From positions 7,765 through 71,764 of the forward strand of contig DAOULV010000019.1 of assembly GCA_034416335.1 (NCBI GenBank): 64,000 bases of DNA, read 5' to 3'. Below, in pieces: positions 37,154 to 41,353 of this stretch. A program made the position numbers and the translations under genes. Below the pieces are notes generated by a model that saw only the letters and a list, made by a program, of their open reading frames with translations, had not been told where the DNA came from and searched no databases. This DNA comes from Dehalococcoidales bacterium. GTDB lineage: Bacteria > Chloroflexota > Dehalococcoidia > Dehalococcoidales > UBA2162. The number at the start of each line of letters is the position of its first letter. Position 1 is the stretch's first letter.

Positions 37154-37320
37154 TCAGGCTATTCCCGTATTGCGGACGTACATTCAGAAATATATATTAA
37201 GGAATCTATATAACAGTTGTTTTTATCGATTAACTAAAATCGAGATTAATCCCAGACATATTCACCTTTTTATACAAGTAAAGGTATAAGCATCTTTCGA
37301 GTAACTAATCAAAGGTTAAC

Positions 37321-37740
37321 TCAGTTGTGGCTAGTGTCTACGTTTACTTCTTCTTTATCACTCTCAGCTAAATACGTCCGATTCATGAGTAAATAATAGA
37401 AGTTCACAAACTTGAAGTAATCATCTGTCAGAATATCATACTTCTTTGCAGTTAAGTACATTTTTGTTAGGCTTTTTACATTCTCAGTATCAGCTTTGTT
37501 TCTTATGATCAAACGATTAATTTGATAATCAATGTCTGCAAAATTAGTTAGAGTGTTTGCTAGTTCTTTCTTAGCTGTTAACGAACTAAAATAACTAGAG
37601 ATTATGGCTATTGCTATGAACTGCAATAGTAAAACAAGCACCAAAAGTAATGTCTTATTGTTAATAGGTAAAAATAATGAACGTGTTGCGATTAGAGACC
37701 AAATAGGAAGAAATATAATTCGGGATTGTATACTTGACAC
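37321..37740 (-). CDS. Hypothetical 2-TM membrane protein (island gene)
   Basis: 139 aa starting at GTG. It has two N-terminal hydrophobic helices and then a soluble region of about 85 aa. The DNA is AT-rich and I recognise no motif. Confidence 0.45.
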   Translation of the reverse strand: MSSIQSRIIFLPIWSLIATRSLFLPINNKTLLLVLVLLLQFIAIAIISSYFSSLTAKKELANTLTNFADIDYQINRLIIRNKADTENVKSLTKMYLTAKKYDILTDDYFKFVNFYYLLMNRTYLAESDKEEVNVDTSHN

Positions 37741-37906
37741 AAGGTTGAGTTAGTGCTATACTATAGGAAATGAAGCTAAGTTTTGTCTTTTTCGGTGATA
37801 ACTTCCTTAACTTTTTCTACTACTTTTTTAGGAAAAAGTTTCTTGATAGTTTCATCGGTTGTTTTCTCGGTTAGCTTCTGTTTCTTATCCAAAGGGGGAT
37901 ACCTCC

Positions 37907-38818
37907 ATGAGTAGCACTAAATCAGATATAAACCTCGTTAGTCTCATTGAACGCTTCAACAGTGAAGACAGGTGTATCGAATACCTTGAAGAACTCAGAT
38001 GGGATGGTAACGTTACCTGTCCTCGCTGTGGTTCGACCAGCGTTTCTACTATTAAAGAACGACATCAATACGATTGTAACACGTGCCGTTATCAGTTTTC
38101 CGTAACTGCGGGTACTATCTTTCACGATACCCACCTTCCACTCTGGAAATGGTTTCTCGCTGTATACATGATGTGCGAAGCTAAAAAGGGCGTGTCCGCT
38201 AATCAGATAAAACGCACGATTAACGTATCCTATAAGACAGCCTGGTATCTCTGCCATCGTATCAGAAACGCCATGACAGAATCCAAACCACGCCCTCTTA
38301 GCGGTATCGTAGAAGTTGACGAGACGTGGATTGGGGGTAAGACAGTCGGCAAGGGACACGGATACAAGGGAAACAAGGTTGCTATCGCCGGAGTGATTGA
38401 ACGTGGTGGCGATGTCCGTACTCAGGTTATCAGTGCGCGGGATCGTAAAACGCTTCACGCTTTTATCGACAAGTTCACCGCCGATGATACCGAAGCTATC
38501 TATACCGATGACTGGCCTGCCTATAACGGTATCGAGGACGAGAACACGAGACATGAGAGCGTCAACCACAGTAAAGAGGAATGGGTTAGGGGAGACGTTC
38601 ACACTAACAACGTTGAGAACATCTGGAGTCTCTTTAAGCGGTCTGTTATAGGTTCGTATCATAAAGTCTCTCATAAACATCTTGACGCTTACCTTGATGA
38701 ACTGGAATGGCGGTTCAACAACCGTAACAATCCTTATCTATTCCGCGATACCCTCCGTAAACTTATTGATTCTGAGAATCTTGAGTATAAGGAGTTGACT
38801 CAGAAAGATACTTTTTAG
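37907..38818 (+). CDS. IS1595 family (ISXO2-like) transposase
   Basis: It has the N-terminal zinc ribbon CPRCGS..CNTCRY and an ISXO2-like DDE domain (VEVDETWIGG..IYTDDWPAYNG..H.SVNH). The start ATG 37907 follows AAGGGGGA. Confidence 0.85.
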   Translation: MSSTKSDINLVSLIERFNSEDRCIEYLEELRWDGNVTCPRCGSTSVSTIKERHQYDCNTCRYQFSVTAGTIFHDTHLPLWKWFLAVYMMCEAKKGVSANQIKRTINVSYKTAWYLCHRIRNAMTESKPRPLSGIVEVDETWIGGKTVGKGHGYKGNKVAIAGVIERGGDVRTQVISARDRKTLHAFIDKFTADDTEAIYTDDWPAYNGIEDENTRHESVNHSKEEWVRGDVHTNNVENIWSLFKRSVIGSYHKVSHKHLDAYLDELEWRFNNRNNPYLFRDTLRKLIDSENLEYKELTQKDTF

Positions 38819-39404
38819 TAATAGTTACCATTCCGATATTAGTAAACACGATTTGTTTAGCAAAAGCATCAACTGCTTCTTTTGATAAATTTGTATCTAT
38901 TGGCAAAATCTGCTCTATTAAATTCTTGTCATCTAGAGGCCATTTTATACTTTCATAAGATGTGTTTTTCCCTGCAAGAAATAGTCTTAACTCGTTGATA
39001 AGATTATCCTGCTCGGTATTAGTTAAGCCACTTGAGTTAATATCATTAACTAAATCCTTTGGTAGTGTCATATGGAATATCAGTACATCACCATTCTTTT
39101 TACTTCTTCTCACTGATACTCTATGCTGTTGCTTATTTTCAATAACAAAGGCAAAATGGTTATCTTTGTACTTATTACCCTCAAGAATGTATATTCCCCA
39201 ACCTCTACTAATTAGCCATTTTTTCAATAGTAGCTTAAGGAAAAGATGCTGTTTAAGATAAATCTCATAAAAACCATGTAGGATTAATAATCCGCCTATC
39301 CCCACTAATAGCCAATTAACAACATTATTCTGTAAAACTCCAAAACCACCCATCGCACTCACCACAAACCCCGAGCCAATTTCAATAGTTGGTAGTTTTG
39401 CCAT
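38763..39404 (-). CDS. Hypothetical 2-TM protein with a soluble C-terminal domain; the 3' end runs into the IS
   Basis: 213 aa. The last 18 or so codons overlap the transposase ORF convergently, which suggests an IS-truncated C-terminus. Confidence 0.45.
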   Translation of the reverse strand: MAKLPTIEIGSGFVVSAMGGFGVLQNNVVNWLLVGIGGLLILHGFYEIYLKQHLFLKLLLKKWLISRGWGIYILEGNKYKDNHFAFVIENKQQHRVSVRRSKKNGDVLIFHMTLPKDLVNDINSSGLTNTEQDNLINELRLFLAGKNTSYESIKWPLDDKNLIEQILPIDTNLSKEAVDAFAKQIVFTNIGMVTITKKYLSESTPYTQDSQNQ

Positions 39405-39928
39405 ACTCCCTCACACAGACATGATATAATTTGGTTACACATTATACCACCATCCCTGTATGAAGTATATAAGCCCGTAAATATTAATACCGTGAAGGTA
39501 ATCGCATAAATTACTCCGATCGCTTTTATTAGAGAGGAAACATTGGCAAAAAACCACTCAAATCCAATATTAGTTTTTTCCTTTCCAAGTTTTTGAAGAG
39601 AATCAGAAGTTTTCTCTAAATCACTTACTTTTGGTCTTTTTGCTCTGAAAAAGGAATATAAGCCCCAAAGGTACATAAGTAAGAATGAACTAGATACCCA
39701 ATATGTAAGTATCTCAAAAAGAACAGATACACCGAGAGCAACCACCACGGCTATAATTGAGCTAATTAGTAAGTTTAACTGACTAGATTCTATACTCTGT
39801 AGTTGTCTGTGAGTATGTCCAGCACTATTTTCAACTAACTCACTTAATTGTCTTAGCTTCTCCATTGATTCTGATAACATATCTGACTTCTCAACAATCT
39901 TATCTTTATGTTTAATCCTCCTCACCAC
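39359..39928 (-). CDS. Hypothetical 3-TM membrane protein (island operon)
   Basis: 189 aa, or 173 aa if translation starts at ATG 39880. It has a helical N-terminus followed by three hydrophobic helices, and overlaps both neighbouring ORFs. Confidence 0.45.
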   Translation of the reverse strand: MVRRIKHKDKIVEKSDMLSESMEKLRQLSELVENSAGHTHRQLQSIESSQLNLLISSIIAVVVALGVSVLFEILTYWVSSSFLLMYLWGLYSFFRAKRPKVSDLEKTSDSLQKLGKEKTNIGFEWFFANVSSLIKAIGVIYAITFTVLIFTGLYTSYRDGGIMCNQIISCLCEGVWQNYQLLKLARGLW

Positions 39929-41051
39929 TTTCTAACTGATACGTTAATGAAAGTGATTCTATCTGAGGCAAAGATGTTCCAGCTATAGCTTCAAGATCAC
40001 CATACATCCCGAATGTTCCTTTTTCAACAAGCTGCAACTGTTTCTCCTGACGACTCCAGATTCTTTCCATAGCTGCTCTTTCTTGAGCTAGTTGTTTTCT
40101 CATTTTCGTAAATGCCCCGACTATACCTTCAATCCTCTGCTTGAACTGTGGACCTGTTAAGTAATCATAAAGTATCTCCATTTTTTGATCTTTGGCTTGA
40201 TTAGCTACCTTGCTTCTATAGAGTTCGGTAAGTACCATTCTCATTGCACTAGCAACTTGAGTTGCTAAAGGCCAGTGGGTTACCCATACACCGTCAATAT
40301 TATCAAAGTGCTTGATGTTCTCTGGTAGAACAGCTGTAGCTATAATAGCAATGTCGGCCTTTTCTTCTTGTTGGTTCTCTTTTAACTTGTCAATCCACTG
40401 CTTGTTCCAACTTCTAGTGTTCTTGGATTCCCAAATAATTGTCCCGCAACATGTTCCTAAATTACCATTAACCTTCTGAATCAAATCAGCACCTCTAACA
40501 CCTTTAGGAACTGGCACTATCTGATCTTCAGGAAAGTATTGTTTAAGTAATTCCTCTAGGGTAATTTCCAAAACTTCTCCCTGGGCTTGTTGAGAACCAA
40601 TTTCAATCTTTTTCTGAAGCTCATCAATCTTCTTGGATAAGCCTTCAATCATTTGATCTTTCTCAGCAACTTTTAATTTATTCTTCTCCTCATACTCTGT
40701 TTTGAATTGATCTATTCCACGTTGAATTTTTAAGTCAAGTTGCTCTTTTTCCTCTTCCCACTTCCTTCTTTCTCTTCTAAATGCTGTTTCCTTATCTCTT
40801 AATTCTTTCAATTCTTTCTCGGATTCTTGCACTTGTTCGTTAAGATCAGAGATATCTTTGGAAGCTTTTTCTTCTGCCTTATTTTGTGCTATTCTTTCAA
40901 TCTCACTTCTTTCCTTTTCAATCCGAGTCTGGTACTGTTCTTCTAACTCTGTAGTAATCTGTGATCGTAGCGGACCTAAAATCACGTCAGTAATCGGAAA
41001 ATAATAACCACATTTTGGGCACTGTACTTTATTCTCAATAGCCTCTGACAT
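39912..41051 (-). CDS. DUF2130-like protein: zinc ribbon + coiled coil + PD-(D/E)xK nuclease-like C-terminal domain
   Basis: 379 aa from ATG 41051, preceded by a GGAGGAGG RBS. It has CPKCG, an E/K/Q-rich coil of about 130 aa, and GAD-x18-ESK (GADLIQ..IIWESKNT). Confidence 0.75.
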   Translation of the reverse strand: MSEAIENKVQCPKCGYYFPITDVILGPLRSQITTELEEQYQTRIEKERSEIERIAQNKAEEKASKDISDLNEQVQESEKELKELRDKETAFRRERRKWEEEKEQLDLKIQRGIDQFKTEYEEKNKLKVAEKDQMIEGLSKKIDELQKKIEIGSQQAQGEVLEITLEELLKQYFPEDQIVPVPKGVRGADLIQKVNGNLGTCCGTIIWESKNTRSWNKQWIDKLKENQQEEKADIAIIATAVLPENIKHFDNIDGVWVTHWPLATQVASAMRMVLTELYRSKVANQAKDQKMEILYDYLTGPQFKQRIEGIVGAFTKMRKQLAQERAAMERIWSRQEKQLQLVEKGTFGMYGDLEAIAGTSLPQIESLSLTYQLESGEED

Positions 41052-41082
41052 TACTAACCTCCTCCACTTCGAGTGTCCTTTC

Positions 41083-41110
41083 ATTATTGTCATCTATGAA
41101 CTTTTGTCAA
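41083..41110 (-). promoter_or_regulatory. Putative promoter TTGACA-16-AATAAT for the DUF2130 operon
   Basis: On the minus strand, -35 is at 41110..41105 and -10 at 41088..41083, about 30 nt upstream of the start codon. Confidence 0.4.
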
Positions 41111-41268
41111 GTTTTATACGGAACAGAGCGTACTGTTAAAACGAAATATTCATTCTATAGCTTTGCTCAAGAGACGCGTTACAATATTGAAAGAAAAGAA
41201 GGTTAATAATTAACAGTGGGGTATTAGAACTGTCACTTACCTGCGACTTACCGCCCAGGTTCGTTCAC

Positions 41269-41353
41269 TGGTGGGGAAGGAGGGACTCGAACCCTCACGC
41301 ATTGCTGCACCAGATCCTAAGTCTGGCCCGTCTGCCAGTTCCGGCACTCCCCC
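41269..41353 (-). tRNA. tRNA-Leu (anticodon TAG), CCA-encoded, long variable arm
   Basis: The reverse complement folds with acceptor GGGGGAG/CTTCCCC, anticodon stem CCAGA/TCTGG with loop CTTAGGA, and T-arm GAGGG-TTCGAGT-CCCTC. It ends in ACCA. Confidence 0.9.

Follow-up and report, generated by a model that had tools for sequence, protein, structure and literature searches.

Whether a DUF2130 gene and the short membrane-protein genes that follow it in a segment of low G+C content (GC) beside a tRNA-Leu gene make up a multi-gene defence operon is the question raised by a 64,000-nt stretch of DNA (the window) from a Dehalococcoidales bacterium (GenBank assembly GCA_034416335.1, contig DAOULV010000019.1, positions 7,765 to 71,764 of the forward strand). 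A reading made from the nucleotide sequence alone (the sequence-only reading) had proposed an operon of a DUF2130-like nuclease with two or three small membrane proteins. The inspection of the locus did not support this: one of the presumed partners, a 213-aa open reading frame (ORF), is the cargo of an insertion sequence (IS), and the other two are the parts of a single ORF split by that IS. There is no conserved multi-gene defence operon at the locus, and the apparent operon is an artefact of the insertion of a transporter-IS. The only component of the islet with a recognisable function is the DUF2130 protein, which is soluble. The features that bear on the insertion (IR, inverted repeat) are as follows.

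37321-37710, minus strand: 3′ part of the split ORF, 129 codons, joined in frame
37711-37718, unstranded: putative copy of the target-site duplication, AAATATAA (plus strand), its position fixed by the IR tips
37719-39478, unstranded: IS1595-family transporter-IS, 1,760 bp, with a transposase and a convergent passenger gene between imperfect IRs
37907-38818, plus strand: IS1595-type DDE transposase, 303 aa (319 aa from TTG 37859), PF12762 1.2e-38
38763-39404, minus strand: IS passenger gene, 213 aa, identified by 27 phmmer homologues and by transposase linkage
39479-39486, unstranded: putative copy of the target-site duplication, AAATATTA (plus strand), 7/8 identical to 37711-37718
39479-39880, minus strand: 5′ part of the split ORF, 134 codons from ATG 39880, assigned by in-frame restoration

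The IS1595 transposase noted in the sequence-only reading, and the coordinates it gave for the three short ORFs (39359-39928, 38763-39404 and 37321-37740), were borne out; it is the grouping of these ORFs that changes. The transposase matched PF12762 (1.2e-38) and PF12760 (3.2e-14), corresponding to a Zn-ribbon plus DDE_Tnp_IS1595 architecture, as well as the NCBIfam model transpos_IS1595 (1.2e-63). The terminal IRs of the element (37715-37747 and 39451-39484) matched at 26 of 33 positions, a score reached by 11 of 2,000 shuffles. Each IR carries an inward-facing promoter-like site, that at 37734-37762 matching at 11 of 12 positions, and the IR motif GGGATTATATACTTGACA-N17-TGnTAtAAT was also present upstream of passenger homologues in three other recovered contigs (L091, L092 and L110).

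Removal of the IS together with one copy of the target repeat joined the flanking sequences in frame, within a hydrophobic helix (...AITFTVLIF/LPIWSLIATRS..., the slash marking the join), and yielded a multi-transmembrane (multi-TM) ORF of 263 aa from ATG 39880, or 279 aa from GTG 39928. The chance of 263 open codons at the local base composition is about 1e-9. Because this removal restores the 263-codon ORF, it also supports, indirectly, the target duplication of about 8 bp. The stretch 39359-39478 of what had been taken for a 189-aa ORF is IS sequence, and the GTG start of what had been taken for a 139-aa ORF was drawn from the IS end; each is half of a single gene, extended by sequence from the IS end. 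No homologue of this gene was detected: a word-indexed search of 5.8 billion proteins with the 173-aa 5′ ORF returned the query's own entry only, while the restored ORF had no match in Pfam, PADLOC or PHROG, none in plasmids or phages, and none at E≤10 among all the ORFs of 87 other DUF2130 loci.

The 213-aa ORF is cargo of the IS1595 element rather than a gene of a DUF2130 operon. Its 3′ end overlaps that of the convergent transposase gene by 56 nt, and its product has two N-terminal hydrophobic helices followed by a DUF2299-like alpha/beta domain. The Pfam match to DUF2299 was weak; in agreement with it, a search with Foldseek using an AlphaFold2 (AF2) model (predicted local distance difference test score, pLDDT, 87.4) paired the soluble domain with 3cxj (E=6e-6, TM-score 0.81), an uncharacterised protein of Methanothermobacter thermautotrophicus. 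Exhaustive phmmer searching with the 213-aa ORF recovered 27 relatives, the best of them 55% identical; a word-indexed search returned the query's own entry only, a metagenome scan with the single protein found nothing, and a scan with a four-sequence alignment of the passenger family (A4) found three loci. The passenger abuts an IS1595 transposase, or the 3′ remnant of one, in five of six independent contexts, L111 being the exception. In L092 (611-1808) the transposase is 71% identical and convergent, and overlaps the passenger by 56 nt exactly as in the window. No DUF2130 gene was found on any of the recovered passenger-family contigs.

In three other contigs, L091/L109, L093 (2015-2751) and L110 (4955-5745), the passenger is accompanied only by a C-terminal remnant of the transposase, some 45-50 codons long, which suggests that the passenger was kept after the transposase was lost. 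The C-terminal tail of the passenger is conserved among its homologues and the window ORF is full length in their alignment; the 213-aa ORF is therefore not cut short by the IS. An alternative IS boundary at a weak IR (37828-37844 and 38805-38821), which would cut this ORF, was rejected since the homologues share the tail, and also since in further contigs, as here, the tail is antisense to the C-terminus of the transposase.

Siguier, Gagnevin & Chandler (2009), as cited in PMC3129680, described IS1595-family elements that carry passenger genes ('transporter ISs'). The element in the window resembles them in its Zn-ribbon plus DDE_Tnp_IS1595 transposase, its terminal IRs, its putative duplication of about 8 bp and the presence, between the IRs, of an additional gene not related to transposition. 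It differs from the known examples in that its passenger is a previously unannotated protein with two TM segments and a DUF2299-like domain, and in that the passenger 3′ end overlaps the transposase by 56 nt. The structural re-annotation of the locus as an IS, its cargo gene, a split ORF and a DUF2130 gene is held with high confidence.

The sequence-only reading had also set down beforehand that DUF2130 homologues lacking conserved membrane-protein neighbours would speak against its operon. Neighbouring genes were surveyed at the 87 other DUF2130 loci mentioned above, 83 of them non-redundant; first neighbours were counted at 80 genome loci and the downstream slot at 74. No membrane gene was a conserved neighbour of DUF2130 across the loci surveyed, nor did any universal or conserved partner emerge from the 83 non-redundant loci, among which the largest neighbour cluster comprised 11 loci, all from related deltaproteobacterial metagenome-assembled genomes (MAGs). 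A same-strand gene lay within 150 bp downstream of DUF2130 in 36 of the 74 loci. The products of these genes were not enriched in proteins with at least one TM segment (14/36 vs 228/796 in the background; Fisher p=0.19) or with at least two (5/36 vs 84/796; p=0.58), and the closest relatives of the window protein (52-66% identity) have differing neighbours. No evidence was found that the membrane ORF is a partner of DUF2130.

Five of the 74 downstream first neighbours matched TPR families of Pfam. Separately, ORFs of 700-780 aa were seen 4-19 nt downstream of DUF2130 in five loci of Planctomycetota and Verrucomicrobiota MAGs (L020, L024, L038, L059 and L060). The five TPR matches probably correspond to these ORFs, and DUF2130 with a 700-780-aa ORF looks like a lineage-specific conserved pair.

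The DUF2130 gene and its signals, all of which had been picked out in the sequence-only reading and agree with the sequence (RBS, ribosome binding site), are the following.

39912-41051, minus strand: DUF2130 protein, 379 aa, PF09903 E=1.9e-61
41058-41065, minus strand: RBS GGAGGAGG, 6 nt before ATG 41051, read directly from the sequence
41083-41110, minus strand: sigma-70-like promoter TTGACA-16-AATAAT upstream of DUF2130, assigned by an 11/12 consensus match only

The match to PF09903 reached 208 bits (cutoff 26.7) and covered profile positions 2-254 of 255; the window protein is 66% identical to the nearest known sequence. Homologues were aligned in sets of 18 and 98 sequences (the latter named A2), and the 98-sequence alignment was used to build an AF2 model. 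The protein consists of a CPxC knuckle, a helix of about 130 aa, a PD-(D/E)xK core and two long C-terminal helices. In the model (mean pLDDT 81.8; 10-residue block means of 84-96 over residues ~161-280), the CPxC motif lies in an N-terminal beta-hairpin, a single helix spans residues 20-149 (57% E/K/Q/R/D), and an alpha/beta core spans residues 156-259. The CPKC sequence at residues 11-14 and the E/K/Q-rich coiled coil of about 130 aa had both been recognised from the sequence. So had the GAD-x18-ESK block (D189, E208, K210) as a PD-(D/E)xK signature: C11, C14, D189, E208 and K210 are invariant in the 98-sequence alignment, E159 is at least 90% conserved, and the family motifs CPxC, QGE, GAD and W-E-x-K are all present in the window protein.

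The structure check proposed with that reading also favoured a nuclease. Foldseek matched the core to BstEII (3.2e-3), SPARDA DREN, DdmD, Bax1, MspJI and VRR-NUC structures in the PDB, and to Mrr-type, PD-(D/E)XK and VRR-NUC proteins in the BFVD viral library (1e-5 to 1e-3); the E-values are modest (3e-3 to 1e-5), mostly at a probability of at least 0.94. The predicted fold falls among those of restriction-type PD-(D/E)xK nucleases, and nuclease activity is predicted. A sequence search of the PDB gave coiled-coil noise only, and PADLOC and PHROGs coiled-coil noise or nothing. No TM segment was found in the protein (the maximum 19-residue Kyte-Doolittle mean was 0.81). The architecture had been likened to DUF2130/RmuC; membership of PF09903 stands, while the RmuC domain (PF02646) had no match at E≤0.1. 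The protein is an ordinary PF09903 member with an intact PD-(D/E)xK site, and only its genomic setting is particular.

C11 and C14 (window 41010-41021) are the only invariant cysteines of the family and lie at the tip of the ~130-residue helix. As a speculation from the alignment and the model, the CPxC motif might supply half of a zinc site, recalling the zinc hook of Rad50, where a second subunit provides the other half.

The setting of the gene points to a foreign origin, as the sequence-only reading had supposed. Two features define it.

37154-41268, unstranded: low-GC segment, from the histidine-kinase stop to the tRNA-Leu 3′ end, with a native, non-IS part of ~2.35 kb
41269-41353, minus strand: tRNA-Leu(TAG), found with ARAGORN and Rfam (tRNA, 52.9 bits); the islet begins just 3′ of it

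GC was 0.315 over 37154-37826 and 0.362 over 38824-41268, vs 0.492 in both flanks. In profile it passes from 0.49-0.55 outside to 0.31-0.36 within 37154-41268, the sole partial recovery (0.45) lying over the transposase gene. GC at third codon positions (GC3) was 0.26-0.32 for the island genes vs 0.64-0.69 for the flanking histidine kinase and aminomutase. These values agree with the abrupt fall after the histidine-kinase stop, the recovery at tRNA-Leu(TAG), and the hand count of 19/60 G+C for 37441-37500 given by the sequence-only reading, and its placing of the tRNA was right. It had also reported neither an integrase nor a tRNA-derived direct repeat; likewise, the islet yielded no integrase gene, and a search of the rest of the segment turned up neither a repeat of the tRNA 3′ end nor any tRNA-derived direct repeat or att site. 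The tRNA was the only match in an Rfam scan. Among DUF2130 loci, a tRNA lay within 8 kb in 11 of 60, a figure not clearly above expectation. The islet is probably a small (~2.35 kb), horizontally acquired and integrase-less insertion 3′ of tRNA-Leu that originally held two co-oriented genes. Its native content is the DUF2130 gene and one ORF without a detected homologue.

The neighbourhoods of the closest DUF2130 relatives contain genes of known defence or mobility types, as follows (identities are to the window protein; RM, restriction-modification).

L096 (569-2774), 66% identity, the closest homologue: HD-domain dGTPase gene with an 11-nt overlap (PADLOC dGTPase 1.7e-48)
L003, 65% identity: tRNA-Lys upstream and two tyrosine integrases downstream
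L009 and L098, 64-65% identity: OLD-family ATPase-TOPRIM gene 33-42 nt downstream (PADLOC Old 1.4e-69 in L009)
L007, 52% identity: DUF3800, NYN, two TM proteins (4-TM and 2-TM, downstream) and MutS
L113/L114, 51% identity: OLD gene overlapping the DUF2130 stop by 29 nt
L115, 46% identity: Fic, an rve fragment and a DpnII RM pair

Defence or mobility genes were present in five of the seven contexts of this closest clade (46-66% identity), and made up about 10% of the first neighbours at the 80 genome loci; both are raw counts given without a background rate. The defence-type first neighbours included GajB/UvrD (UvrD plus PDDEXK), PtuA-like, CARF/Csm6 and Old-type genes. The association of DUF2130 with defence is a lead rather than an established fact. 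By eye, a partial gene upstream of the DUF2130-OLD pair of L009 (L009:3-680, minus strand) has a restriction-endonuclease-type N-terminus and a P-loop (GEPASGKST), and would be another defence-like neighbour. DUF2130 is also encoded on 45 plasmids, 31 of them from Bradyrhizobium; on one plasmid (p183_1 of Bradyrhizobium sp. 183; L094:6971-10200) a TIR-domain gene lies ~500 nt downstream.

An OLD gene was found directly beside DUF2130, on the same strand, in seven independent loci from several phyla.

L009:1076-3979
L098:1199-2755
L113:1186-4078
L043:7734-11144
L041:4871-8061
L068:636-4035
L088:7776-11238

The two genes overlapped by up to 29 nt or were separated by up to 275 nt, and the OLD gene lay downstream or upstream (upstream in L041 and L068). 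The OLD proteins of L043, L088, L041 and L068 are only 22-31% identical to one another. The OLD family includes P2 Old, which is stand-alone, Gabija GajA and the PARIS AriA-type ATPase. Close relatives of the window gene are directly followed by OLD genes, unlike the window itself, where no OLD gene or remnant is present. PADLOC 2.0 has no named system for the pairing; the recurrent adjacency may be an undescribed two-gene pairing or simply the clustering of genes in defence islands.

The best overall explanation, in our judgement a probable one, combines the islet, the IS-split ORF and DUF2130 as a stand-alone conflict nuclease. An islet of ~2.35 kb would have been acquired horizontally 3′ of tRNA-Leu, bringing the DUF2130 gene, equipped with a promoter of its own and a strong RBS, followed by the 263-aa membrane ORF. 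Later, a 1.76-kb IS1595 transporter-IS would have inserted in a TM segment of the downstream ORF, recently, since both halves of the ORF are still open; carrying its own membrane-anchored passenger, it would have produced the look of three small membrane-protein genes. The DUF2130 protein would act alone as a Mg2+-dependent DNA endonuclease and would probably oligomerise via its helical stalk, and a zinc ion could be shared between subunits through the two invariant cysteines. The protein may limit foreign or aberrant DNA, as do RmuC-domain nucleases such as ShdA, and would need no neighbouring membrane ORF, which in any case is disrupted here. A stand-alone role against mobile genetic elements (MGEs), by analogy with ShdA, is plausible, and the neighbours of the closest relatives make a defence or conflict role plausible. 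Taken by itself, the conflict-nuclease function is rated at even chances or somewhat less.

Several observations weigh against this explanation. The target duplication (AAATATAA/AAATATTA) is imperfect (7/8) and AT-rich, and the restored ORF could start at either ATG 39880 or GTG 39928. The IS ends were deduced from one full copy and partial relatives, the window containing no second copy and an exact-sequence look-up of the transposase returning only the present locus. The defence-neighbour rate consists of raw counts with no background control behind them. In the literature searched no functional study of any DUF2130 protein was found, and PADLOC 2.0 holds no model of the family and gave only noise for the window protein; the sequence-only reading was correct in stating that no named system is built around DUF2130. 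Many DUF2130 homologues lie in ordinary, syntenic neighbourhoods, with an amino-acid kinase gene upstream in seven related deltaproteobacterial MAGs and metabolic genes elsewhere. Finally, phage and viral collections contain few members of the family (7 Helicobacter prophage records and 10 IMG/VR contigs).

The last two observations agree with a rival account in which DUF2130 is a housekeeping nuclease of recombination or repair, like chromosomal RmuC, that was transferred by chance, the islet having no conflict role. Its occurrence in many phyla (at least 581 species genomes) and the conservation of synteny with metabolic genes in the deltaproteobacterial clade are consistent with this, as is the parallel with RmuC of a coiled coil joined to a PD-(D/E)xK domain, the alignment of their motifs in hhalign being without statistical support. 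The gene is, however, compositionally foreign both in the window and in L007, and its neighbourhood differs in every close relative, with defence or mobility genes in five of the seven. The taxonomic distribution of the family is, moreover, patchy: the PD-(D/E)XK census of Steczkiewicz et al. (2012; PMC3424549), which gives the function of DUF2130 (PF09903/COG4487) as 'Unknown', noted horizontal gene transfer and, of the archaea, 'One archeon M. paludicola'. The housekeeping account is considered unlikely.

A second rival holds that DUF2130 is the core of a modular two-gene system whose downstream effector is exchangeable (OLD, dGTPase or multi-TM), the window being a TM variant inactivated by the IS. 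It draws on the tight coupling of downstream genes: the dGTPase of L096 overlaps by 11 nt and the OLD genes of L113/L114 by 29 nt, those of L098/L009 follow after gaps of 33-42 nt, and the TM ORF of the window has a 17-nt overlap or a 32-nt gap depending on its start. L007 (52% identity), with its 4-TM and 2-TM proteins downstream, would be a further TM case. Nucleases, dNTPases and TM proteins are, besides, the usual types of abortive-infection effector. Shield offers a precedent in combining a conserved nuclease with variable downstream partners (PMC10270631). Yet OLD and dGTPase proteins work as stand-alone defence genes, and their adjacency may be ordinary defence-island clustering; the OLD gene is sometimes upstream (L041 and L068). 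A same-strand gene follows closely in only 36 of the 74 loci, this slot shows no excess of TM proteins, and the TM ORF of the window is without a detected homologue. The complete catalytic site, moreover, makes DUF2130 look like an effector and not a sensor. The modular system is considered rather improbable. Its wider form is also doubtful, namely that DUF2130 might be the conserved core of a widespread, so far undescribed system against MGEs and act either by itself or with a translationally coupled partner, encoded downstream and open to exchange (OLD, dGTPase or multi-TM). In such a system the invariant CxxC on the coiled coil would serve as a Rad50-hook-like zinc dimerisation point.

The four-gene operon of DUF2130 with two or three small membrane proteins, loosely likened to Kiwa or Zorya, has in its favour that all the ORFs share a strand and overlap at their ends, within a low-GC segment next to a tRNA. 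It is highly improbable: the 213-aa ORF is carried by the IS, the remaining two make up a single IS-cut gene, none is conserved beside DUF2130, and the analogies found no support in PADLOC, where the small ORFs had no match to KwaA/KwaB or ZorA/ZorB and DUF2130 only a coiled-coil-level match to ZorA (E=0.25).

The value of the preferred explanation lies, at this locus, in a corrected annotation: a nuclease gene of a known family, an IS-split ORF, and a transporter-IS with its cargo. It also carries a warning that ORF fragments generated by an IS can pass for operon partners. Beyond the locus, DUF2130 is a large PD-(D/E)xK family and, alone or with OLD, a reasonable candidate for the restriction of phages or plasmids. 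Two by-products are worth keeping, the recurrent DUF2130-OLD pairing and the family of IS1595 passenger genes.

Among known systems, the closest comparison is with Shield. Its nuclease ShdA (RmuC domain, PF02646; Macdonald et al. 2023, PMC10270631) confers phage defence on its own, reduces transformation efficiency and breaks down DNA in vitro; its gene stands by itself or ahead of partners that vary, in the vicinity of integrases and other defence genes. The DUF2130 protein gave no ShdA-type PADLOC match at E≤1, and hhalign of the 98-sequence alignment against Escherichia coli RmuC gave a probability of 0.3%; the QG(x)E and D-I-x-P-x-G motifs were aligned with E. coli RmuC, though without statistical support. 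An N-terminal TM anchor, a feature of RmuC and ShdA, was tested for and not found; in its place DUF2130 has an N-terminal beta-hairpin with the CPxC knuckle. Like ShdA and RmuC, DUF2130 has a nuclease domain of the PD-(D/E)xK clan after a long helical region, and like ShdA it is seen either by itself or followed by differing genes, with defence genes and integrases close by at a number of loci. Shield is restricted to Pseudomonas, DUF2130 being distributed over many phyla. The likeness we propose is one of function, by analogy: DUF2130 would work like ShdA but is not a member of RmuC/Shield. If this is true, DUF2130 would be a second coiled-coil PD-(D/E)xK defence family beside Shield.

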